A model generated the notes under the pieces. That model worked only from the letters and a program-made list of their open reading frames with translations. It made no database searches and was not told the origin of the DNA. DNA of 29,509 nucleotides from a virus (lineage: Duplodnaviria > Heunggongvirae > Uroviricota > Caudoviricetes). The translations under genes and the position numbers were made by a program. The stretch lies in the IMG/VR virus record IMGVR_UViG_2718218398_000001, positions 1-29,509 of that record. One strand, written 5' to 3'. This document shows positions 1 to 12,017 of the stretch, in pieces (the stretch's first letter is position 1; every line of letters starts with the position of its first letter).

Positions 1-2203
1 GAGCGTTATTTCTTTAATGAATCCCGTGATCCTGTCCAGCGCGAAATGGAGCAGGATAAGCTCATTAGCCGGGCAAAGCTGGTGCATGAGCAGCAGCGTT
101 TTAATCCGGACATGGTCATACTGGCGGACGTTAACGCCCAGCCTTCCCATATCAGCAAGCCGCTGATGCAAACGTATTGAATACTTCAGCAGCCCTGGGC
201 AGGCCAAAGGCTTATTCCCGCTATTTGCGTGAGACGATTAAACCATGTCTGGAACGACTAGAGCATGTACGCGACAGTATCTGCATCTTTCGTTTTATGG
301 CAAAATGAAGGCTGGACGGCCTGCTGATCTTGCCTGAAATGAGTCAGGATCAGGTGAAGCGCCTGTCTACCCTTGTTGCCGGCACATATGAGCATGTGCC
401 TTGATGCAGCTTGTGGTGATTTGTATGCCACCGATGACGTTAAGCCAGAAGAAATCCGCAAGACATGGGAAAGGGTGGCGGCGGAAACCCTGCGTCTGGA
501 TGTCATCCCTCCTGCGTTTGAGCAACTCCGCCGGAAAAGAAACCGCCGTAAACCCGTACCCTATGAACTCATTCCGGGTTCGCTGGCGCGTATGTTGTGC
601 GCCGACTGGTGGTATCGGAAATTATGGAAGATGCGTTGCGAATGGCGGGAAGAGCAGTTGCGTGCTGTTTGCCTGGTCAGCAAAAAAGCATCTCCCTATG
701 TCAGCTATGAAGCCGTGATGCATAAACGTGAGCAGCGCCGTAAGTCGCTGGAGTTTTTCCGTTCTCATGAACTGGTGAACGAAGACGGCGACACGCTGGA
801 TATGGAGGACGTGGTAAACGCCAGTAGTAGCAACCCGGCGCATCGCCGCAATGAGATGATGGCATGTGTTAAAGGTCTGGAGCTTATCGCGGAAATGCGC
901 GGTGACTGCGCCGTTTTCTACACCATCACCTGTCCGTCACGTTTCCATTCCACGCTAAATAACGGCAGGCCCCAACCCGACCTGGACAAATGCGACGGTA
1001 AGACAAAGCAGTGATTATCTGGTCGGCATGTTTGCTGCATTTCGTAAGGCGATGTACAAAGCCGGATTGCGCTGGTATGGCGTGCGGGTGGCTGAGCCGC
1101 ATCATGACGGTACAGTTCACTGGCACCTGTTGTGTTTTATGCGCAAAAAAGATCGCCGCGCCATTACTGCTTTGTTGCGTAAGTTTGCCATTCGTGAAGA
1201 CCGCGAGGAGCTGGGTAATAACACAGGACCACGCTTTAAGTCTGAGCTGATAAACCCGCGCAAAGGTACACCAACAAGCTACATCGCGAAATACATCAGT
1301 AAGAACATTGACGGGCGTGGTCTGGCTGGCGAGATCAGCAAGGAAACGGGTAAATCTCTGCGTGATAACGCTGAATACGTTAATGCCTGGGCGTCTCTGC
1401 ATCGTGTTCAGCAATTCCGCTTCTTTGGCATTCCGGGGCGTCAGGCTTACCGTGAACTGCGATTGCTGGCTGGTCAGGCGGCAAGGCAACAGGGTGACAA
1501 AAAAGCAGGTGCGCCGGTACTGGATAACCCGCGCCTTGATGCCATTCTGGCTGCAGCTGATGCTGGTTGCTTTGCCACCTACATCATGAAGCAGGGCGGC
1601 GTACTGGTTCCCCGTAAATATCACCTCATCAGAACCGCTTATGAAATCAACGAAGAGCCGACCGCCTATGGCGATCACGGTATTCGTATTTATGGCATCT
1701 GGTCACCCATTGCAGAGGGCAAGATCTGCACTCATGCAGTGAAGTGGAAAATGGTCCGTAAAGCCGTTGACGTTCAGGAGGCGGCAGCCGACCAGGGCGC
1801 TTGCGCCCCTTGGACTCGTGGCAATAACTGTCCCCTTGCTGAAAATTTGTACCAACAAGGGAAAGACAAATCAGCTGATGGGGATACCAGAACGGACATT
1901 ACCCGCATGGATGACAAGGAGTTGCACGATTACCTGCACAGTATGAGCAAAAAAGAGCGCCGGGACCTGGCAGCAAGGTTACGCCTGGTTAAACCGAAAC
2001 GGCGTAAAGACTACAAACAGCGAATTACATACCATCAGCGACTGCAGCTCGTCTATGAGCTGAAGTCCAGAGGATTTGATGGTAGCGAGAAAGAGGTCGA
2101 TTTACTCCTTCGCGGCGGCAGTATTCCGTCAGGAGCAGGCTTGCGTATCTTCTATCGGAACCAGCGTTTGTGGGAAGATGATAAGTGGCGGAACCTGTAT
2201 TAA
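1..2203 (+). pseudogene. A: Replication initiation protein gpA (rolling-circle HUH endonuclease), 5' partial and frame-disrupted
   Basis: ORFs 373..1014 and 1028..2203 are collinear with P2 gpA. HUH motif HWHLL at 1118..1132 (within [11 protein letters not shown]). Paired active-site tyrosines [12 protein letters not shown] starting at 1280. Window bases 1..372 appear to continue the same protein in shifting frames. At least one frame break near 1015..1028, probably more upstream. Confidence 0.85.
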
Positions 2204-2295
2204 TTACGCGGATTAACAATTCGTGCTCTTAATAATACCAGGCATATCAGGCTGATGAACGTAAAAAAACGTTTTACATCAGTAAGATTATTATA

Positions 2296-2315
2296 TACTG
2301 TAAATATAAACAGTG
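2296..2315. promoter_or_regulatory. LexA (SOS) box, CTGT-N8-ACAG
   Basis: 20-mer tactgtaaatataaacagtg matches the E. coli LexA consensus taCTGT(at)4ACAGta, with CTGT at 2298..2301 and ACAG at 2310..2313. Lies in AT-rich DNA upstream of a small ORF and a dinI-like gene. Confidence 0.6.
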
Positions 2316-2356
2316 GTTATGCATACAGTATTGCTTGTGGTGTCATAGGAGGAAAG

Positions 2357-2479
2357 ATGCAGGACTATTTTTTGGAGTCTTTGAAGCTCCAGCGCATTGA
2401 TTTTTTTCTTAAGCTTGTAGCGGCTAGTGAGTGTAGTGATGAAGAAAGGGGCTGGCTCTGCAGTGGGTTTCTGAATTGA
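2357..2479 (+). CDS. Hypothetical small protein (40 aa) between the SOS box and dinI-like gene
   Basis: ATG at 2357 preceded by a strong RBS AGGAGG (2349..2354). The six-frame ORF extends to 2255, but that start lies upstream of the LexA box. No recognisable motif. Confidence 0.35.
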   Translation: MQDYFLESLKLQRIDFFLKLVAASECSDEERGWLCSGFLN

Positions 2480-2554
2480 CTGATGAACTCATGGCAAAGA
2501 TCAGAACCCACGAATACAACCGCTCAATGGATGTCATCAGTTGAGGTGACTTTT

Positions 2555-2788
2555 ATGCGCATTGAAATAATGATCGATAAAGAGCAGAAGATTAGCCAGT
2601 CTACCCTGGACGCCCTTGAATCCGAGCTTTACCGCAATCTGCGCCCCCTGTATCCAAAAACGGTAATTCGTATCCGTAAAGGTAGCTCTAACGGTGTGGA
2701 ACTGACCGGACTGCAACTGGATGAAGAAAGAAAACAAGTGATGAAAATTATGCAGAAGGTGTGGGAAGACGACAGCTGGCTGCATTAA
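2555..2788 (+). CDS. dinI: DinI-family protein (DNA-damage-inducible protein I-like)
   Basis: 77-aa product MRIEIMIDKEQ...IDALESELYRNL...KVWEDDSWLH aligns by eye along its length with E. coli DinI (MRIEVTIAK...IDALAGELSRR...ETWESADDWF). RBS GAGGTGA lies upstream of the ATG at 2555. The six-frame ORF 2483..2788 contains it. Confidence 0.8.
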   Translation: MRIEIMIDKEQKISQSTLDALESELYRNLRPLYPKTVIRIRKGSSNGVELTGLQLDEERKQVMKIMQKVWEDDSWLH

Positions 2789-2792
2789 GAAA

Positions 2793-2839
2793 CGTTGCCC
2801 CCAAGAGGATTTATCCTGTTGGGGGGAGTTTGGGCAACG
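2793..2839. terminator. Long imperfect inverted repeat or stem-loop downstream of the dinI-like gene (possible terminator)
   Basis: cgttgccc (2793..2800) pairs with gggcaacg (2832..2839), with inner ccccaa/ttgggg and aggat/atcct pairings. No clean U-tract. Confidence 0.3.
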
Positions 2840-3276
2840 AGTGAAATGAGGTGTAAGGTGGGCGGTCATTTTGATAAGTGATCGTCCACTTTGTGTCAGA
2901 ACCTGATGTTTGTTGTACATTCGGACGAATAGGCGGCGTTGTTTGCTTTAAAAATAAAACAGGAACACTTTGAGAAAGTGAACAGGTGTATTTATTTGTT
3001 GCTGATGAATGAGAGTAACTCTAATTTGGATAATTAGCTTGATAATAGGTCAGACGAAAATAATATTCCAGCACACTTTTGGTCGCAACAGGCATTAGTT
3101 AATTTTAAGTGATAAATTTTTATCCATAAATTAACACTAGTGTGTCATCTAGCGAAACCGAATCGCTTTAACTCATAACTTGAAGTTGAATCAGTGGGGT
3201 AGCAGTAGGCATGCCGGAACTGATAAACTGTGCAGAAGGCTAAACATTCATTCACTCGTGAGATAGTAGCTAAATT

Positions 3277-4143
3277 ATGCAAAGAATTATTCCTGATAAA
3301 AATTGGTGGGAAAAAGAGCGTATTAATCGTAAAGCATCATCAATATGCCCATATGCTAGTTCATACAGATGTCCTCGATACTATCAGAGTGTAGTTTTGC
3401 TCTCAAGCATCAATGTGATAGCTGGTATGGCAACTAGGAAAGAAAAAGAGTTGGGCGAATTTTGGGAAAGAACCACTTTCTCATCTTTATGTGATGAAGA
3501 AGTCCCTACAGTTACTACAAAAGAATATGGCGGCCTTGCATCAGTTAGTAATTTTTGCCCAGAAATATCATTTAGATATTTACACTACTACGCCGATTAT
3601 ATGTGTAAATATGTTGATGAGATAGATCAGGACACTGGCAGGCGTATTGCGGAAAAAGATAATTTAGAAAATGATTGGAAATATACATGGATGTCAGTCA
3701 ATCCTAAATTTTATTTAGATTGCGATGTTTTTGAAAGTGTCAAAAATTTTAATGAAGAATTGGCTAGTGATTACTTAAAAAGATTGCACCCAAATATCGT
3801 TCAGCAAATAGATAGAATGAATAATTGCTTGGATAATAATGATCCGGCAGGTGCACTGCACGCAGCCTCTAATATTTTAGAAACTATGGCTAAGGAAATC
3901 ACTCAAAACCCGAATGTGGCAAATGAGTCATTGGGTGGTTTTTTTAAACAGTTCGAAAAAATGTCAAAATTACCTAAGAATCTTATTGATGCTGTTAAAG
4001 ATATTTATGATTTACGCAACAAATTACCTACTGCTGGACACGGAAGCTTGAACAAGCCTGAATTGACTATGGTAGAAGCTATAACTATTGCGGCAATGAC
4101 AAAGGCGATTTTAGAAATTGAATATCGAAGCAAAGCCATCTAA
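3277..4143 (+). CDS. Hypothetical protein (288 aa) with Cys-rich N-terminus and HEPN/Abi_C-like C-terminal signature
   Basis: Intact ORF in low-GC DNA. N-terminal cysteines (CPYASSYRCPRYY, FCPE, MCKY, LDCD). C-terminal helical region with LRNKLPTAGHG (R at 4015, H at 4039), resembling the RN...HG signature of Abi_C/DUF4145-type HEPN domains. The R-H spacing is longer than canonical Rx4-6H. Confidence 0.5.
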   Translation: MQRIIPDKNWWEKERINRKASSICPYASSYRCPRYYQSVVLLSSINVIAGMATRKEKELGEFWERTTFSSLCDEEVPTVTTKEYGGLASVSNFCPEISFRYLHYYADYMCKYVDEIDQDTGRRIAEKDNLENDWKYTWMSVNPKFYLDCDVFESVKNFNEELASDYLKRLHPNIVQQIDRMNNCLDNNDPAGALHAASNILETMAKEITQNPNVANESLGGFFKQFEKMSKLPKNLIDAVKDIYDLRNKLPTAGHGSLNKPELTMVEAITIAAMTKAILEIEYRSKAI

Positions 4144-4270
4144 CAAACCAAATTATGTGGTTCAAATTCCCGCTACACTTCTGTGTTGCCGCCAGCGTCT
4201 ACTTATCGCTGTGAGTTCAACGGGTGATGATGCGTTAGAGATCTCTGAATCGATTGAAGTCTAAGGTTGT

Positions 4271-4292
4271 CAGGGCTGTAACAGCAGCCCTG
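4271..4292. terminator. Stem-loop between convergent genes (candidate bidirectional terminator)
   Basis: cagggctg (4271..4278), loop taacag, cagccctg (4285..4292). Sits in the 250-bp gap between the 3' ends of 3277..4143 (+) and 4393..5047 (-). Confidence 0.35.
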
Positions 4293-4392
4293 TGTCATGA
4301 ATGGATTGCATATTAATTGACGAAGAACAGACTAATATCATCGATAGCTGTTTTCAAAAATAGACCAATAACAAACTGAGATGTTATCGTAT

Positions 4393-5047
4393 TCATTTCG
4401 ATGATTGATCCAGATGTGTATATAACCATTGAAAGAGTTTTCTAATTTTTGTGATAGTATCTTTTAAATAATTTAAGGAGATTATTATATTATTTTCATT
4501 GTTTAATGAAAGAGTAGGTGTTTTATCAATGATATTTTTTAAGGCTACAGCTGTGCTCATTTTTTTAATGTCTCCATTAGCATGAACTATGCAATTCCTT
4601 ACTTTGTTAAACTCTGTCATGAATTGCCACTCTTGTGACAGGCCAAAGTTTATATCCATTAATTTTGTTAAATATCTTTTTGCTTTGTGGATGCCATCAC
4701 CATTAAAATCGGTTACTGATATATTGGTGTTTACAATCCTTTGACATATATTGCAATAGTCGTTTAGGTTGTGCTCTAAGCATGAGTATAAAGATACCAA
4801 AGCAGATTTATTAAAAAATATTTGGTTGTATGTTAACTAAGAAATCATATTGCTCTGAATAATAGTCTTCTAAGTAATTAATATAATCGTCAGGAGCATT
4901 CTTTTTTTCATCTTCATATGCTTTTTTTAATTCCGCTAAGTCAACTCTGTTTTGGCCGCCTGCTCCTAGGATATATTTTTCGAAATCATCAATCTGCGCT
5001 TCAAGTGAATATCTTGATAGCTGTGCGAAAAGTTTGTATTTACTCAT
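4393..5047 (-). CDS. HEPN-like protein, candidate abortive-infection RNase; split into two ORFs (4811..5047 and 4393..4800) by a 1-nt frame change at an A6/T6 run
   Basis: Minus-strand ORFs of 78 aa and 135 aa are contiguous; the upstream one ends at a TAATAA double stop directly after a T6 run (plus-strand A6 at 4814..4819). Removing one T fuses them into about 215 aa (...NIQPNIF-NKSALVSLYSC...). Canonical HEPN motif R-N-C-I-V-H (Rx4H) encoded at 4582..4599, followed by a predicted helix. Confidence 0.5.
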
Positions 5048-5446
5048 CGGTATGCCATTCCTTTTTAATTATAAACCTTTGGGTTAAAAGGAGCTGAAAA
5101 TAGTAACTCATTATTTTTGTTTGTAAAGGGGGTATTGTTTTTACTAGATCAAGATAAAACAATGGGAATATCCGCTTTTCGCTCACAGCGGACTTTCATC
5201 TTTGTAAACCCGTATGATTAGCTTTTCAGCGGTCATTCAGATACGGATTTACGCTTCCCTTGGCTGTGCATGACTATGACGCATGAGATCGCATGATCGT
5301 TAGAGGATCGTTTTTGCTGAGGCCAGCCAGAACTGGCGTGCTTTTGCTTATGTCGTGCAGGTGCATGAAAACCACTACATAAAGCGGGCAGGCGTGGCGG
5401 GGATACGAGCGCGCGCTTATTACTTTGATAGTACTCGGGTTATAAT

Positions 5447-7129
5447 ATGGATGACTATCTATCTCGGAGAATGTACATGTCATTAGACTATATTAAAGAA
5501 CAGTTGTCAGACTTTATTTCATCTGCAGAACCTGAGGTAATGGCTATTCAGGGTGAGTGGGGGATTGGGAAAACCTATACTTGGAATGCTTTCTTAAAGG
5601 AAAATAAAAATAAGATTGCATTTAATAGATATAGTTACGTCTCTCTTTTTGGTGTTAATTCATTGGACGCATTAAAATACTCCATCTTTGAAAATACAAT
5701 TACGAAAGATTTCATTGGAAACAAACCTAATTTAAAAACAGCAACACAAAATGCAAAGGGGCTTCTTGAATCCTGCACTAGAAAGACCGCTCGTGTGTTA
5801 AAAGATACACCTTTTTTGAAAAATTTCACTACGACACTTGAGTCAATGTCATTTATGTCAATTACTAATGTTATTGTAGTCATAGATGACTTAGAAAGAC
5901 GTGGTAAAAATTTAGAAGTGAAAGATGTCTTAGGGTTGGTTTCTTTATTGAAAGAACAAAAAAATTGTAAGGTGGTTCTTTTACTTAATAACGGGACAAG
6001 TGGTATGGATGACTACTCCACTTATAAAGAAAAGGTTATTGATAGAGAGATTACCTATAATCCTACTCCAGAAGAATGTGCAGTTATAGCATATAAAAAT
6101 AATTCTGATGTTCATAAATTATTAAGCAAATACTCCATTTCCCTGGGTATTAAGAATATTAGGATACTGAAAAAAATAGAGCGGTTTTTGCTAGCCTTGT
6201 TACCTGGCATTAACGTTAATTTTGAAAAAATTGCAAATGAAGTCGCACACTCCTTAACTTTGTATTGTTGGAGTCATTACGCATTTACTCCAGATGGAGA
6301 TGTACCATCATTGGAGTATATTAGAAATATGAGAAATATCTATATGCGTGATGAAAAAGAGGATGGAAAAGAAAAAAAATGGCTTAATACTTTGCTTATA
6401 TATGATTATAAAAAAACAAACGAACTTGATGAAGTCCTTATAGACATGGTAAGGCATGGATATATTGATATGAACAATTTCCAAAGGCAAGTAAGTCTAA
6501 GGAATGATGAACTTATCCGTGATAGTAAGCGAGGTTCACTGTTTGAAGCATGGAAGCTTTTCTATAATTCATTTGAAGATAACCGAAATCAGGTTATTGA
6601 TAATCTATATCAAGCGGTGGTTGGTGGGATAGAGTATGTAACTCCAAGTGACTTGGATAGTGTTGTCGGACTGTATAGAGATTTAGGTGAAAATATTAAA
6701 GCAAGTGAATTAATAAGTAAATTTATTAATTACGGCAATGATGCTCTTAAGGAATATGTTCAATCTATTTACATGAATGTTCATCCTATAAAAGATGCTG
6801 AGTTAAAGTCAAAAATCCAAGATTATTCTACTACTTTAAATCTGGATGGTTCTATAAAGGATGTTCTAATAAAATTATCAAGTCAGAATGGTTGGTCTGA
6901 TAGGCACGAGGAAATATTGGATGCTGCCTCAGAGGATGACTACTATGATTTATTTAAAAAAGTCATTCTTGATGGTGGTGATTCAATAATAGCTACTGCT
7001 CTTAAGTTTGGTGGGTATAGCAATGGTTCAGAAAGAATGAAACGCATCGGAGAAAAAGCGAGAAATGCTTTGATAAGAATTGGAAATGAGTCGAGCATTA
7101 ATAAAATACGTGTTAGACGGTATTTGTAA
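5447..7129 (+). CDS. KAP-family P-loop NTPase (560 aa)
   Basis: Walker A GEWGIGKT (5552..5575). Walker B plus the KAP-characteristic hhhhDDLER/DR motif NVIVVIDDLERR (about 5870..5902). Long alpha-helical C-terminal region. Low-GC codon usage. The true start is more likely ATG 5477 (RBS GGAGA at 5466..5470) than 5447. Confidence 0.7.
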   Translation: MDDYLSRRMYMSLDYIKEQLSDFISSAEPEVMAIQGEWGIGKTYTWNAFLKENKNKIAFNRYSYVSLFGVNSLDALKYSIFENTITKDFIGNKPNLKTATQNAKGLLESCTRKTARVLKDTPFLKNFTTTLESMSFMSITNVIVVIDDLERRGKNLEVKDVLGLVSLLKEQKNCKVVLLLNNGTSGMDDYSTYKEKVIDREITYNPTPEECAVIAYKNNSDVHKLLSKYSISLGIKNIRILKKIERFLLALLPGINVNFEKIANEVAHSLTLYCWSHYAFTPDGDVPSLEYIRNMRNIYMRDEKEDGKEKKWLNTLLIYDYKKTNELDEVLIDMVRHGYIDMNNFQRQVSLRNDELIRDSKRGSLFEAWKLFYNSFEDNRNQVIDNLYQAVVGGIEYVTPSDLDSVVGLYRDLGENIKASELISKFINYGNDALKEYVQSIYMNVHPIKDAELKSKIQDYSTTLNLDGSIKDVLIKLSSQNGWSDRHEEILDAASEDDYYDLFKKVILDGGDSIIATALKFGGYSNGSERMKRIGEKARNALIRIGNESSINKIRVRRYL

Positions 7130-7134
7130 TTTGG

Positions 7135-7152
7135 GGGGGATTTTCATCCCCC
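7135..7152 (+). terminator. Hairpin terminator candidate after the KAP NTPase gene
   Basis: ggggga / ttttca / tccccc stem-loop 6 nt after the stop at 7127..7129, followed by a T-rich stretch (cacattttat). Confidence 0.4.
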
Positions 7153-7163
7153 ACACATTTTAT

Positions 7164-8195
7164 CTAATTCAATGAATAATCTTTGAAGGCTATTATTTTT
7201 TTCTTTAGCCAAATATTAATTTCTACAAGTCTTTTTTGTAAAGGAGTTAACTCATTTCGCACAAAAACGCAACTGGCTTTTTCTATATCCCCAAACCCCC
7301 CAACATTGTTTGGCATTATCCCCATCATCTGCGGCGGCACACGATGCGCCGCCATCATGTCATCCCGACTTACGTTCTTGATGTTAAGAAATTCATCCTT
7401 CGCCGCGACTTCTGACAATGGGATGATCTGAAGCCCGTCTTTTTTGCCGTTAGGCGAGTACATAAACAGGTTGCGGAAGTTGCCTGGACCTTTGGCACTT
7501 TTCATCGCGTTGCGGAGGTTGTTCACATCCTCCTGATTCTGCGCGGCGTCGGTCATGTACATGATGAAGCCTGCATGGCTGCCGTTGATGTAATACTTAC
7601 GGCGGAACAGCGTGGCGGACTCGTTGAGCAGGGCGGATGGAATGGCAGAAAGATAGCCGGGCAGGCCGTAGATCTCCTGGTTGATGTCCGGCTCCATCAG
7701 ATGAAAAATGCTGCCTTTCGTGAACTGATACGGCTGGGTTGTCATACCGTATTGCACAAACCAGTAGGTATCCAGGTCTAACCCACGTCGGGTGTATTTT
7801 GCCAGAGCAGGCTCAAGGGCGATAACTTCACCGAACCGGTTCGTGCGTTTCTCCAGGTAAGCGTTACCAAATACCAGATAGTCCTGCACAAAACGTGAAA
7901 AAGCCTGCTGGCTGAGAAGCGGGTGAGGGATGTAGGTACTGGTCAGAATGTTGCATTTCACCGCAATTGGTGAACTGTGATGCACGGCAGCGCGGAAGGT
8001 TCGCGCCAGTCCGTCAAAACTCACTGGCGGCTCATACCAGCGATCTGTCTGTACGCATTCTACATAGTCCAGCAGTTCGCGGCGGTCCAGAACAGGAACG
8101 GGATCGCCAAAGCTGAATGCTTCGGCTGAAGTCTGGCTTTTGTGCTGAATCTGGTTCGTCGACACAGCGCGGTTCTTCTTACTCTTTCCCATCAA
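7164..8195 (-). CDS. Q: Portal protein gpQ
   Basis: 343-aa product, the same size as P2 gpQ and collinear with it by recall. Lies directly upstream of terminase P on the same strand, with the 4-bp overlap typical of P2 Q/P. The last ~45 codons are encoded in AT-rich DNA. Confidence 0.85.
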   Translation of the reverse strand: MMGKSKKNRAVSTNQIQHKSQTSAEAFSFGDPVPVLDRRELLDYVECVQTDRWYEPPVSFDGLARTFRAAVHHSSPIAVKCNILTSTYIPHPLLSQQAFSRFVQDYLVFGNAYLEKRTNRFGEVIALEPALAKYTRRGLDLDTYWFVQYGMTTQPYQFTKGSIFHLMEPDINQEIYGLPGYLSAIPSALLNESATLFRRKYYINGSHAGFIMYMTDAAQNQEDVNNLRNAMKSAKGPGNFRNLFMYSPNGKKDGLQIIPLSEVAAKDEFLNIKNVSRDDMMAAHRVPPQMMGIMPNNVGGFGDIEKASCVFVRNELTPLQKRLVEINIWLKKKIIAFKDYSLN

Positions 8196-9959
8196 AAAAT
8201 CTCCACAATATTGCTGGTATTGGCGGACTCGCCCTGCAGCGGTTCGTTAAACAGTGCGTGCATTGTTGCCCACGCCAGATCGGCATGGCTGGCTTCTTCG
8301 CTGCGGCTGGCTTCATAGGTCGGGCGGTTGCCGCTGGCGGTGGTGGCGCGACGGATTGCCATAAATGACTGCGCTATGTCGGTGTGTCCGGCGTCAAACT
8401 CCAGACGGCGGTGACTGATAATGTCGTAGGCCTTGAGTACCAGGGCATTTTTAACGTTGGGGTTGTAGACAAACTCCCGGACGGCAGGAAAAAACGCTTT
8501 CACGTTCTCGTAAACCCCGTGACCGACGCCGGTTGAGTCGATACCGATGTATGTCACGTTGTACTGTTCAGTCAGTTTTTTGATGGCGTCAGCCTGGGCG
8601 CGGAAGTCCATCCCGCGCCACTGGTGACGCTCAAGAATGCGGAACTTACCGCCCGGCACGGCTGGCGGTGCCACCACCACGCATCCGGCGCTGTCGCCGT
8701 TCTGCGTACCTTTTGCCGGGTCATAACCGATCCACACTTCGCGCCAGCCAAACGGGCGCAGCGCCAGTGCATGAAAGTCGGTCCAGACTTCCCAGCTGTC
8801 CACCATGCACGCCTGTAGTTCGCTGAGCGGGAACACGGACGCGAGATCGTCCACAAACTCGCACATCAGCAGGTTCTGGTATTCGTCCGGGCTGTATTCC
8901 ATGCGCAACTGGTCAAGGTCGAACAGGTTACAGCCACCGCGCACCGCATCTTCCACGGTGACTATCTGGCGGTATTGCCCGTCAGCGCACAGCAGGCCGG
9001 GGGCCAGATTGCTGTGGGACAGATCAATGTCCACCTTGTCGGCTTTGTTGCGTCCACGGTTGAACAGCGCACCGGACCAGAACGGATAAGCACTGTGGGT
9101 CAGGCTGGATGGTGTGGAAAAAATAGGTCTGCCGCCATTTCTTGTGAATAGCCATACCGGAAGCCACTTTGCGTAGCTCCTGAAATTTCGGTATCCAGAA
9201 ATATTCATCCAGATACAGGTTGCCGTGATAACTCTGGGCCGTGCGGGCATTGGTGCCGAGGAAGTAAAGCGTGGCCCCGTTAGGAAGCACCATCGGATCG
9301 CCTTTCAGTTCCACATCCACTTCTTTGGCGAAGTCGATGATGTACTGCTTAAAGACGTGGGCCTGTGCCTTACTGGCGGAAAGGAAAATCTGGTTACGTC
9401 CGGTAAGCAGGGCGTCAATCAGGGCTTCACGGGCAAAGTAAAAGGTCGCGCCGATCTGGCGTGACTTCAGCAGGTTGCGGATGCGGTTGGTTTTTCCGGC
9501 TTCCCACCAGTGGCGCTGGTAGTTGAACATGGAGGAATGGAAGATTTCTTCCAGCTTCTCAATCTGTTCATCGGTGAAGACATTCTTTTCCGGCTGACGG
9601 CGCGGGCCTTTGTTGCGGTTGGCGACGTTAGGGTTTAAGTCAGCTTCGTTGCCGCCATTGTTAAACTTGCCGATCCGCGCGTGGCGCTCAGACTGGCGCG
9701 CCAGCAGGTCAATCTCTTTGAAATCTTTCCCTTCTTTGTGCTCCTTCATAATGAGCTGGCAGTAGCGTGCGGCGGTGGTGAGCTGCATCTGATCCAGCGG
9801 CCCATAGTCACCCCACTTGTCGCGTTTTTTCCAGCTGTGAACGGTTGCAACTTTCTCGCCCAGCATTTCAGCAATGCGGGCGACGCGGTATCCCTGAAAG
9901 TACAGCAGCATGGCCTGCCGACGGGGATCGAGATCTGCGGGTGTCAGTGTGGTGTTCAT
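8192..9959 (-). pseudogene. P: Terminase large (ATPase) subunit gpP, frame-disrupted
   Basis: Two overlapping minus-strand ORFs (9024..9959 and 8192..9250) together span 1768 bp, about 589 aa, the size of P2 gpP. One frame change in the 9024..9250 overlap. Confidence 0.85.
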
Positions 9960-10005
9960 GGCACAAACCTACAGCCTTGAATGAAGGCTTTCCCCGCCTG
10001 CGGTT

Positions 10006-10023
10006 TGTGTGGTTGTCGGTACA
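10006..10023. promoter_or_regulatory. Ogr/Delta-type late-promoter activator site (TGT-N12-ACA) in the P/O divergent region
   Basis: tgt gtggttgtcggt aca, about 80-95 bp upstream of the O start (10102), in the divergent P-O intergenic region where P2 carries its late promoters. Confidence 0.45.
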
Positions 10024-10101
10024 AATACCGCGCATTGTTTCACTGCCCCCATCACCGCAACCATAAGGCTCCAGTAAGTTTTTTCTAACGGAGCACGGCT
10101 C

Positions 10102-10934
10102 ATGACAGTGAAAGCAAAGCGTTTTCGCATCGGGGTGGAAGGTGCCACCACCGATGGACGCGAAATCCAGCGAGAATGGCTGGAACAGATGGCAGCCAGC
10201 TACAACCCGGCGGTGTATACCGCGCTGATTAACCTTGAGCACATCAAGTCTTATCTGCCGGACAGCACCTTTAACCGCTACGCAAGGTGACGGCGCTGTT
10301 TGCTGAAGAAATCACGGAAGGTCCACTGGCAGGCAAGATGGCGCTGTATGCCGACGTTGAGCCAACGGAGTCCCTGGTGGAGCTGGTGAAAAAAGGCCAG
10401 AAATTATTCACCTCTATGGAAGTCAGCCCGAAGTTCGCTGATACGGGCAAAGCCTACCTGGTTGGCCTGGCTGCCACTGATGACCCTGCCAGTCTGGGCA
10501 CTGAAATGCTGACATTCAGCGCCAGTGCAGCCCATAACCCGCTGGCAAACCGCAAGCAGAACCCCGCCAATCTCTTTACCGCTGCAGAGGAAACGGTGAT
10601 CGAACTGGAAGAAGTCCAGGACGACAAACCGTCCCTGTTTGCCCGTGTCACGGCGCTGTTTACCAAAAAAGAGCAGTCCGATGATGCCCGGTTCTCTGAT
10701 GTGCATAAGGCCGTGGAACTGGTCGCCACTGAACAGCAAAACCTGAGTGCGCGCACCGAAAAATCCCTGTCTGAACAGGAAGAACGCCTGTCTGAGCTGG
10801 AGACTTCCCTGCAGGAGCAGCAAACCGCCTTTAACGAACTGGTGGATAAGCTGAGTCATGAAGACAGCCGCCAGGACTACCGCCAGCGTGCAACAGGCGG
10901 CAACGCCCCCGCTGACACTCTGACCAATTGCTGA
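10102..10934 (+). pseudogene. O: Capsid scaffolding protein gpO, one frame change near 10285
   Basis: ORFs 10102..10290 and 10287..10934. N-terminus FRIGVEGATTDGREI...INLEHIKSYLPD and C-terminus ...SDDARFSDVHKAV...ATGGNAPADTLTNC match P2 gpO. The frame break is consistent with loss of one G in a GG run (RYG). Confidence 0.85.
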
Positions 10935-10950
10935 TGGAGCATAAAACCCA

Positions 10951-12017
10951 ATGAAGAAGAATACCCGTTTTGCTTTTAACGCTTACCTGCAGCAGCTGGC
11001 GCGTCTGAACGGTGTGGCAGTTGAAGAACTGTCCAGCAAGTTCACTGTGGAGCCGTCTGTGCAGCAGACGCTGGAAGACCAGATCCAGCAGTCCGCCGCT
11101 TTCCTGACGCTGATTAACGTCACGCCCAGTGACTGAGCAGTCCGGTCAGCTGCTGGGGCTGGGTGTTGGCAGCACCATTGCCGGAACCACTGATACCACC
11201 GCGAAAGAGCGTGAACCTGTCCGATCCGACGCTGATGGTCGATGTGGAATACAAATGTGAACAGACCAACTTTTGACACGGTGCTGACCTACGCGAAGCT
11301 GGACCTGTGGGCGAAGTTTCAGGATTTCCAGGTGCGTATCCGTGACGGCCATCGTGAAACGTCAGGCACTGGACCGCATCATGATCGGCTTTAAACGGCG
11401 TGAAGCGTGCGAAAACCTCCAACCGTAGTGAAAACCCCGCTGCTGCAGGATGTGAACAAAGGCTGGCTGCAGAAAATCCGTGAGGATGCACCGGATCACG
11501 TCATGGGCAGCACCACCACGGGTGGTGAAACCACACCGGGCGCGGTGAAAGTCGGCAAAGGTGGAGAATATGCCAACCTGGACGCCGTGGTGATGGATGC
11601 TGTCAATGAGCTTATCGACGTGGTCTACCAGGACGATGACGATCTGGTGGTGATTTGCGGTCGTGAGCTGCTGTCTGACAAATATTTCCCGCTGGTCAAC
11701 AAAGAGCAGGAAAACAGTGAAAAACTGGCTGCCGATATGAATCATCAGTCAGAAACGCATGGGTGGCCTGCAGGCCGTGCGTGCGCCGTTCTTCCCGCCG
11801 AATGCGCTGCTGATCACCCCGTCTGGATAACCTGTCCATTTACTGGCAGGAGGACACCCGCCGCCGTTCGGTTATCGACAACCCGAAACGTGACCGGATT
11901 GAAAACTTTGAATCCGTTAACGAAGCCTATGTGGTTGAGGACTACCGCTGCGCAGCACTGGTGGAAAACATCCAGATTGGCGACTTCAGCGCCGCCGCCG
12001 CAGAAGCCGGAGCATAA
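10951..12017 (+). pseudogene. N: Major capsid protein gpN, multiply frame-disrupted
   Basis: N-terminus MKKNTRFAFNAYL...KFTVEPSVQQTL (10951..11136) and a later segment VKVGKGGEYANLDAVVMDAVNELIDVVYQDDDDLVVICGRELLSDKYFPLVNKEQENSEKLAAD match P2 gpN in different frames. At least four frame changes between 11136 and 11880. Stop at 12015..12017. Confidence 0.85.

Follow-up and report, generated by a model that had tools for sequence, protein, structure and literature searches.

The window analysed here, a stretch of 29,509 nucleotides (nt) that makes up the virus record IMGVR_UViG_2718218398_000001, holds a P2-like phage of the Fels-2/186 type with the order A, 62-amino-acid (aa) open reading frame (ORF), DinI, cargo, Q, P, O. 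Three cargo genes lie between A and Q: p288, whose product has an N-terminal Cys4 domain followed by a HEPN domain; p217, whose product is a candidate solo HEPN protein; and a gene for a KAP-family P-loop nucleoside triphosphatase (NTPase), here called KAP. Judged from sequence comparison, the A-Q interval is the known cos-proximal hotspot, here organised as two separately exchanging slots, and the three genes in them are probably autonomous, single-gene anti-phage candidates. The hotspot and the KAP candidate family are already known. The interest of the locus lies mostly in its cos-split architecture and in the p288 domain family, whose Cys4 domain matched none of the libraries searched.

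Cargo slots around the cos site

The initial annotation had described positions 2204-7163 as an AT-rich island in a GC-rich backbone of P2-like synteny. The difference in composition is borne out (33-35% versus 52-55% GC). The backbone has 52.4% GC over 1-2203 and 54.7% in the Q/P region at 7164-12000, and the cargo has 34.7% over 2910-5263 and 33.0% over 5418-7163. The synteny (A, Q, P, O) also stands and is, more exactly, Fels-2/186-like. The span of the island needs correction: low GC extends over 2910-7163 with the exception of a cos block at 5264-5417 (54.5%), and 2204-2909 (43% GC) is conserved backbone rather than cargo. The 62-aa gene and DinI in that backbone segment are unchanged in Fels-2, SEN8 and all E. 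coli relatives examined.

At window 5391-5409 lies the 19-nt cohesive-end sequence GGCGTGGCGGGGATACGAG, which matches without a difference the "putative cos site" annotated at bases 1-19 in the genome of phage SEN8 (NC_047753.1). The end-to-start junction of SEN8 aligns over the entire cos block, and the SEN8 and Cartapus records terminate inside it. The block matches Felsduovirus records, which places the phage as Fels-2/186-like. Its core (5266-5417) is 89-95% identical across the aligned Fels-2, Salmonella and E. coli loci, irrespective of the flanks; for P2-like phage records from Klebsiella and Yersinia the figure is 85-93%.

Comparison with related prophages locates the edges at which cargo is swapped. 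E. coli PEC422 is identical to the window from 1801 to 5417 and divergent beyond, E. coli PSJ-29 is identical over 1801-2909 and 5171-7367, and in the Fels-2 and Salmonella loci homology to the window resumes at about 5266. The breakpoints fall at 5417/5418 on the right of the cos block and 1-95 bp to its left (5171-5266), which suggests that homology flanking cos acts as a recombination anchor. On these alignments the low-GC "island" is two cargo slots on either side of cos that exchange separately. Since cos lies between the genes, packaging puts them at opposite ends of the molecule, with p288 and p217 in the right terminal part of the virion DNA and KAP in the left.

The linker at 5171-5417 had been considered as a small RNA or regulatory element, an idea dropped once it was identified as cos. 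An Rfam scan of 1800-7600 (expectation value, E, up to 1) gave no RNA family, and a repeat search of 2200-7250 gave nothing beyond short chance matches. A promoter scan was uninformative, with 20 sites versus 20.5 expected; terminator-like sites numbered 7 versus 3.0 expected, a count of descriptive use only.

The slot had been assigned from the start to the variable anti-phage region of P2-like phages, and the literature agrees. In the accessible text of Rousset 2022 (PMC9122126), gpA-gpQ is a cos-proximal anti-phage hotspot of P2-like phages in which many loci carry more than one system. The same locus, with AT-rich, rapidly swapped cargo beside cos, is described in that text and in the accessible part of the Moura de Sousa 2026 preprint (10.64898/2026.02.27.708500). 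In both, so far as those parts go, the gpA-gpQ genes are extracted as a single locus, whereas here cos divides it into two slots. Table S5A of PMC9122126 already lists WP_001726290 (KAP) and WP_000049685 (p217); KAP, p288 and p217 are not among the tested systems given in the accessible parts of the two papers. As had been noted, the locus is without Old or Tin, neither of which gave a PADLOC match.

Distribution of the three genes

KAP and the two HEPN proteins had been proposed to form one defence module, with co-occurrence in other hotspots as the check. The check was run on 5,426 complete E. coli genomes. KAP is present in 128 of them (2.4%), p288 in 18 and p217 in 9, and all three occur together in a single genome, that of E. 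coli O25b:H4. By tblastn, each fetched locus outside the E. coli P2-like slot has at most one of the three, and no fetched locus apart from O25b:H4 has KAP with either HEPN gene. The three do not co-occur elsewhere, an outcome that the initial annotation had itself named as contrary to its proposal, and the module is not supported as a trio.

Partners are exchanged on both sides of cos. Five right-end cargos accompany the KAP allele (at least 97% identical): a 111-aa, a 203-aa and a 141-aa protein, a 71 + 280-aa pair, and p288 + p217. An 80%-identical allele is paired with an 883-aa HsdR_N protein, so that six differing right-end neighbours surround the 97-100% and 80% alleles; the neighbours of the 42-44% homologues are unrelated. 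The p288 + p217 cassette (99-100% identical) in turn has four left-end partners, namely KAP, an 81-aa protein with an LPO_1073 family protein, Septu PtuA/PtuB, and PDC-M01A/B. More distant homologues are likewise dispersed. Those of KAP (42-44% identity) lie in a Salmonella prophage and in non-phage islands without a HEPN neighbour. Intact p288 homologues (87-44%) stand by themselves in Salmonella, Shewanella, Vibrio, Pseudomonas and E. coli NCTC9064, and p217 homologues (81-61%) do so in Enterobacter, Salmonella, Pantoea and Morganella.

The co-presence of the three genes in O25b:H4 is probably a recombinational accident in a fast-swapping hotspot and not a functional unit. Adjacent defence-looking genes in the P2 gpA-gpQ hotspot are not to be read as one system, and the extraction of systems from gpA-gpQ loci should allow for cos, because cos splits the locus into independently recombining slots. 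What the locus gives is three well-delimited candidates: a Reve-like KAP, the solo HEPN p217 and the Cys4-HEPN p288. Each is a plausible, uncharacterised defence candidate, as had been suggested. The combination had not been recognised as a described defence system; KAP taken alone is not unrecognised, as it matches PADLOC PDC-S49. NCBIfam has no family for KAP, p288 or p217, and a literature search found nothing on the three protein accessions, PDC-S49, PDC-S32 or phrog_4740.

The three candidate proteins

p288 consists of a Cys4 domain (aa 1 to about 160, ~155 aa) and a HEPN domain (aa about 180-288). The C-terminal domain has the four-helix HEPN fold. In the p288 family R247 and H255 are conserved in at least 90% and G256 is invariant, and sub-threshold matches to Abi_C occur in 19 of 50 relatives. 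The N-terminal domain is alpha/beta; it matched no Pfam, NCBIfam or PADLOC model, and a profile of the full-length p288 family found no sequence match in the PDB. An exhaustive HMMER search with p288 residues 1-175, reduced to representative clusters at 50% identity, found the N-domain in at least 338 clusters, of which 200 have E values of 1e-10 or below. Across 143 aligned domains C24, C32 and C94 are conserved at 100% and C149 at 97%, and W10, W63, E74, P95, E96, D114 and D117 at 91-100%. Position 145 is His in 99% of the sequences and Phe in p288.

About 40% of the representatives are the N-domain alone (150-210 aa). Among the top 149, extensions of at least 80 aa are C-terminal in 81 and N-terminal in 6, and when these 87 extensions are grouped by sequence together with the C-terminal part of p288, 51 unrelated clusters result. 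The N-domain is fused to TIR domains in P0251, which matches Cat1 and AbTIR, and in P0271, which matches Cap12 and PycTIR and has in addition a lipoyl-like domain; it is fused to SEFIR in P0285. HEPN accounts for a minority of the partners. Modular single-chain immune proteins are marked by this pattern, in which the N-terminal module is conserved and the immune effectors are exchanged. The Cys4 domain would be the sensing or regulatory part of such a protein, and in p288 it would license the HEPN RNase. It is possible, and is put forward tentatively, that p288 represents the branch with a HEPN effector within a large modular single-chain immune family, in which a Cys4 sensor or regulator, perhaps metal- or iron-sulfur-dependent, licenses interchangeable effectors. 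A sensing role of the Cys4 domain, if real, would make it a new input module among bacterial immune architectures.

Known sensor-HEPN proteins, the CARF-HEPN proteins Csm6/Csx1 and Abi_C/AbiJ, differ from p288 in both halves. The p288 N-domain is defined by C24, C32, C94 and C149 with E74, E96, D114 and D117, and the HEPN motif has R-x7-H spacing. In contrast to HEPN-MNT and RnlA/LsoA, neither p288 nor p217 has a nucleotidyltransferase or antitoxin gene beside it, whether in the window or at any homologue locus. A very weak match of p288 to PADLOC PDC-S32 was also seen (E 0.01; protein 201-268, profile 199-263 of 285), and PDC-S32 may be a distant sister family of the same architecture. The "Putative HEPN" tested by Rousset (pFR103) was considered as a match and is an unrelated protein.

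Homologues of p288 occur in a Salmonella myovirus-type prophage, in Shewanella, between Lamassu and Gabija in E. coli NCTC9064, and next to PDC-S31 in a Vibrio island. In Pseudomonas tussilaginis (L006, 6138-7586) the homologue is convergent with a KAP gene, and a NACHT protein is nearby; this KAP is PDC-S20/PifA-like (E 9e-119) and belongs to a clade other than that of the window KAP. No p288 relative was found in 50,697 deposited phage genomes.

In the window an additional A at position 4813 breaks p217 into two ORFs (78 and 135 aa); the chromosome has the 217-aa gene intact. The first 80 or so residues of the protein are helical and precede the HEPN core. Within the motif NKvRNCivH, an alignment of 17 sequences shows no variation at R150, N151 or H155, even in a Bacillus protein with 25% identity in that alignment, and a UniRef name reads RiboL-PSP-HEPN. 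The view of p288 and p217 as two convergent HEPN-like proteins is upheld by the fold of the former and, in the latter, by the invariant RNxxxH together with weak matches to HEPN hidden Markov models (HMMs). The family is small (32 clusters) and confined to Enterobacterales, save one Bacillus relative; in the phage genome set a single relative was found, in a Bacillus phage, at 31% identity. Its members always occupy cargo positions of mobile elements without a partner: the ends of lambdoid prophages in Enterobacter and Salmonella, an integrative and conjugative element in Pantoea, and, in Morganella, the tail hotspot of a P2-like prophage. The homologue loci examined show no conserved partner or antitoxin gene.

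HepS (PMC13043305), a solo HEPN abortive-infection protein of prophage Gifsy-1, offers a model of how such a protein could work. The HepS tetramer is inactive until a phage tail-tip protein opens it, and it then cuts tRNA anticodon loops. Like p217, HepS is prophage-borne, about 217 aa long, has an R-x4-H motif, lacks a partner or antitoxin gene and sits in a cargo slot; its motif is at residues 100-105 versus 150-155 in p217. With an E limit of 10, neither the p217 nor the p288 profile retrieves a PDB sequence, and thus not that of HepS (PDB 9oik). p217 may be a new solo HEPN protein, unrelated to HepS in sequence, with a comparable mode of working. By this analogy it would be made constitutively and held as an inactive oligomer, and a phage protein would switch on cleavage of tRNA or mRNA, leading to abortive infection. 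HepS may also be likened to the effector half of p288.

KAP was correctly recognised as a KAP NTPase (Pfam PF07693, 34.9 bits versus a cut-off of 20). Its start at 5477 has a GGAG ribosome-binding site, is the RefSeq start and gives a product of 550 aa. The Walker A lysine, proposed as K42 for mutagenesis, is intact, but its number from this start is K32; K42 applies solely to a longer ORF. Walker A spans G26-T33 and Walker B is D137-D138, and the corresponding motifs GEWGxGKT and hhhhDDLER are invariant in 58 KAP homologues. The fold is ORC/Cdc6/STAND-like, the C-terminal half (~300 aa) is conserved, all-alpha and without a catalytic motif, and conservation extends over the full length in at least 924 clusters. 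In Aravind's account of 2004, transmembrane helices inserted in the P-loop domain are said to be typical of many prokaryotic KAP NTPases, not obligatory. No transmembrane segment was found in KAP (maximum 19-aa hydropathy 1.28); its insert at aa 86-127 is polar, with low predicted local distance difference test (pLDDT) values.

The match of KAP to PADLOC PDC-S49 has an E of 2.2e-25 and covers residues 16-445 of the protein and 9-443 of the 624 profile positions. Reve, a single-gene KAP P-loop system of the P4 hotspot that reduces Drexlerviridae plaquing by up to ~10^5-10^6-fold (10.64898/2026.02.27.708500), matches the same model at E 2.5e-11. Its 586-aa sequence, taken from the supplement of that preprint, is 26% identical to KAP over aa 21-243 (E 2e-12), and the C-terminal halves are unalignable. 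Both proteins are soluble, about 550-590 aa long, with an N-terminal KAP P-loop, a helical C-terminal half and ORC-like structural matches, and both adjoin cos, Reve in a P4 and KAP in a P2 element. They differ in carrier, a P4 satellite versus a P2-like phage, and homology does not run over the full length. By its profile match KAP belongs to an already catalogued candidate family (PDC-S49) with a validated distant relative in Reve. Because KAP partners vary and Reve works as a single gene, KAP is taken to be autonomous.

Other KAP proteins also defend as a single polypeptide: EF_KAP and further single-gene KAP proteins do so in a Walker B-dependent manner (PMC12632615). EF_KAP, Tmn, PifA of the F plasmid and QatA of QatABCD share the KAP-type P-loop. 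EF_KAP and Tmn have transmembrane helices, which KAP lacks, and the QatBCD partners are missing from its surroundings, since its neighbours are cos and Q only; PADLOC gave KAP no match to the models of PifA or QatA, even with E allowed to reach 1. A search of PDB sequences with the KAP profile gave nothing useful. A 44%-identical homologue lies in the corresponding cos-Q slot of a Salmonella prophage, and in the phage genome set full-length relatives of 26-27% identity were found in Burkholderia phages, near the genome ends, and in the 109-kb E. coli phage CMS-2020a. KAP would be a soluble, autonomous KAP/AAA+-like nucleoside triphosphate (NTP) switch of the PDC-S49/Reve type. Its helical half may bind a phage-derived cue, which would cause NTP-dependent switching or oligomerisation and so block phage development.

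Could the genes nevertheless work together? If KAP were an NTP-driven sensor with the two HEPN RNases as effectors, the adjacency of the three genes in the prophage and their uniformly low GC would be explained, and an NTPase with a nuclease is a frequent defence design. Table S5A of Rousset has KAP_NTPase with PIN_12, DprA or HsdR_N, which can be read as an NTPase with swappable nucleases, and in Pseudomonas the p288 homologue adjoins a KAP, though a different one, of the PDC-S20/PifA type and outside the window KAP family. The distribution data largely refute such a three-gene system and leave it highly improbable. cos puts KAP and the HEPN genes at opposite ends of the packaged DNA, the trio is confined to one of the 5,426 genomes, and the same KAP allele stands beside five unrelated neighbours, four of which were scanned against PADLOC with 0 model matches. 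The HEPN cassette occurs with Septu or PDC-M01 in place of KAP, distant KAP homologues have no HEPN neighbour, and Reve functions as a single gene. A two-gene system of p288 and p217, as HEPN subunits or as toxin and modulator with KAP independent, is also quite unlikely, if less so. The two genes are convergent and 250 bp apart, p217 stands beside p288 in all nine E. coli genomes that have it, E. coli copies of p288 without p217 have a premature stop, and HEPN active sites form across dimers. The nine co-occurrences, however, are of one 99-100% identical cassette and count as one event, and elsewhere homologues of each gene stand alone, those of p288 intact. Profile-profile comparison with hhalign found no relationship between the two proteins, and since the genes are convergent they are not co-transcribed.

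A greater, still minor, likelihood attaches to the view that the genes have no anti-phage role and are addiction or stabilisation toxins, regulators of the prophage life cycle or neutral morons. Roughly one in four gpA-gpQ loci of P2-like phages has cargo unrelated to defence, partition systems for example (Rousset, PMC9122126), HEPN proteins also serve as toxins of toxin-antitoxin pairs, and KAP NTPases have diverse roles. In the accessible material of the same paper, the P2-locus "Putative HEPN" (Table S2B, "additional tested systems") is outside the three further P2-encoded systems with reported activity. Set against this are the occupation of the same slots by AbiU, Septu and PDC-M01 in sister phages, the p288 homologue embedded between Lamassu and Gabija, the fusion of the p288 N-domain to the immune effectors TIR and SEFIR, the validation of the KAP relative Reve, and the lack of an antitoxin-like partner gene. 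Three autonomous anti-phage candidates remain the preferred reading, and several observations weigh against it. The R247-x7-H255 motif of p288 is one residue beyond the canonical Rx4-6H and lies in a low-confidence loop (residues 254-256 below pLDDT 50), the match of p288 to Pfam Abi_C (PF14355) scores 18.8 bits, below the cut-off of 24, and the Cys4 domain could itself be an enzyme. A 97%-identical p288 without p217, found in lambdoid prophages of 8 E. coli genomes (EC261, L016, 4501-5367, and 7 others) beside a zeta-toxin family gene, has a nonsense codon at E115, and the stop is inside the conserved D-E-I-D motif. As p217 is always with p288 in E. coli, and all nine occurrences are a single near-identical cassette, the two may cooperate. 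The HEPN matches of p217 are weak, PADLOC RTasHEPN at 1e-5 to 4e-6 and PF18735 RiboL-PSP-HEPN in 6 of 17 family members at best 2.4e-4. The similarity of KAP to Reve is confined to the NTPase and lid region, no effector domain is recognisable in KAP, and PDC-S49 is itself a computational PADLOC candidate only.

The record, feature coordinates and other slot occupants

The window corresponds to NZ_CP015088.1 after a rotation of 937 nt (rotation checked). This 29.5-kb contig, labelled "extrachromosomal", comes from E. coli O25b:H4, and the chromosome of the strain, NZ_CP015085.1, contains an integrated copy of the element. Owing to the rotation, gene A starts at window 29302. Over its first 10 kb the window differs from the chromosomal copy at 16 gap positions, almost all of which are homopolymer or short indels, with sites at window 170-970, 2445, 4813 and 9118. 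The window "frameshifts" in A, the 62-aa ORF, p217 and P are due to these contig indels, since all four genes are intact in the chromosomal copy. Prophage decay as their cause was ruled out on the same grounds, and the RefSeq pseudogene calls for A, the 62-aa ORF, P and O on NZ_CP015088.1 are assembly errors. The separate phage-length contig could represent excised phage DNA in the sequenced culture.

Table 1. Features of the A-Q interval in window coordinates.
Feature	Position	Strand	Remarks
Gene A, 3' part (replication endonuclease)	1..2203	+	Pfam Phage_GPA 5e-43; RefSeq; left hotspot border
Conserved 62-aa hypothetical gene WP_001154434, phrog_698	2357..2544	+	Backbone; broken by missing G at 2445
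DinI-like gene WP_001217575	2555..2788	+	Pfam DinI 1.3e-22; phrog_189; backbone
Right-end cargo slot, DinI to cos	2910..5263		Virion right end; holds p288 + p217
p288, WP_032317446	3277..4143	+	Cys4 N-terminal domain + C-terminal HEPN domain
p217, WP_000049685	4393..5047	-	Candidate solo HEPN, R150-N151-x3-H155
Conserved cos block	5264..5417		154 bp, 54.5% GC; cos at 5391-5409
Left-end cargo slot, cos to Q	5418..7163		33.0% GC; holds KAP
KAP-family P-loop NTPase WP_001726290, 550 aa	5477..7129	+	Pfam PF07693; left-end slot
GC-rich hairpin then T-run, terminator-like	7132..7153	+	Between convergent KAP and Q; consensus match only
Portal gene Q	7164..8192	-	Pfam Phage_portal; RefSeq; right hotspot border

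The two slots hold other genes in related prophages. At the right end, a 71/72-aa + 280-aa pair recurs in Salmonella and E. coli (L019, 3710-4770; L036, 1457-2514). It accompanies differing KAP alleles, is found with SieB in Rousset's table and gave no PADLOC or Pfam match; it is a candidate two-gene system. The 203-aa right-end cargo WP_016237789 (L035, 1569-2180), also without a PADLOC match, is named "valyl-tRNA synthetase" in RefSeq, which is implausible for its size and position. At the left end, Fels-2 carries AbiU (PADLOC 2.7e-112; L004, 5144-6841), and sister prophages carry Septu PtuA/PtuB (PADLOC 7e-122 and 2e-82; L038, 7800-9702) or PDC-M01A/B (L039, 7775-10289). A further variant, with no PADLOC match, has an 81-aa membrane protein with an LPO_1073/Vpar_1526 family protein (L002, 8272-9384), and the left-end slot of SEN8 holds a 332-aa protein and an HNH endonuclease (L027, 128-2142).

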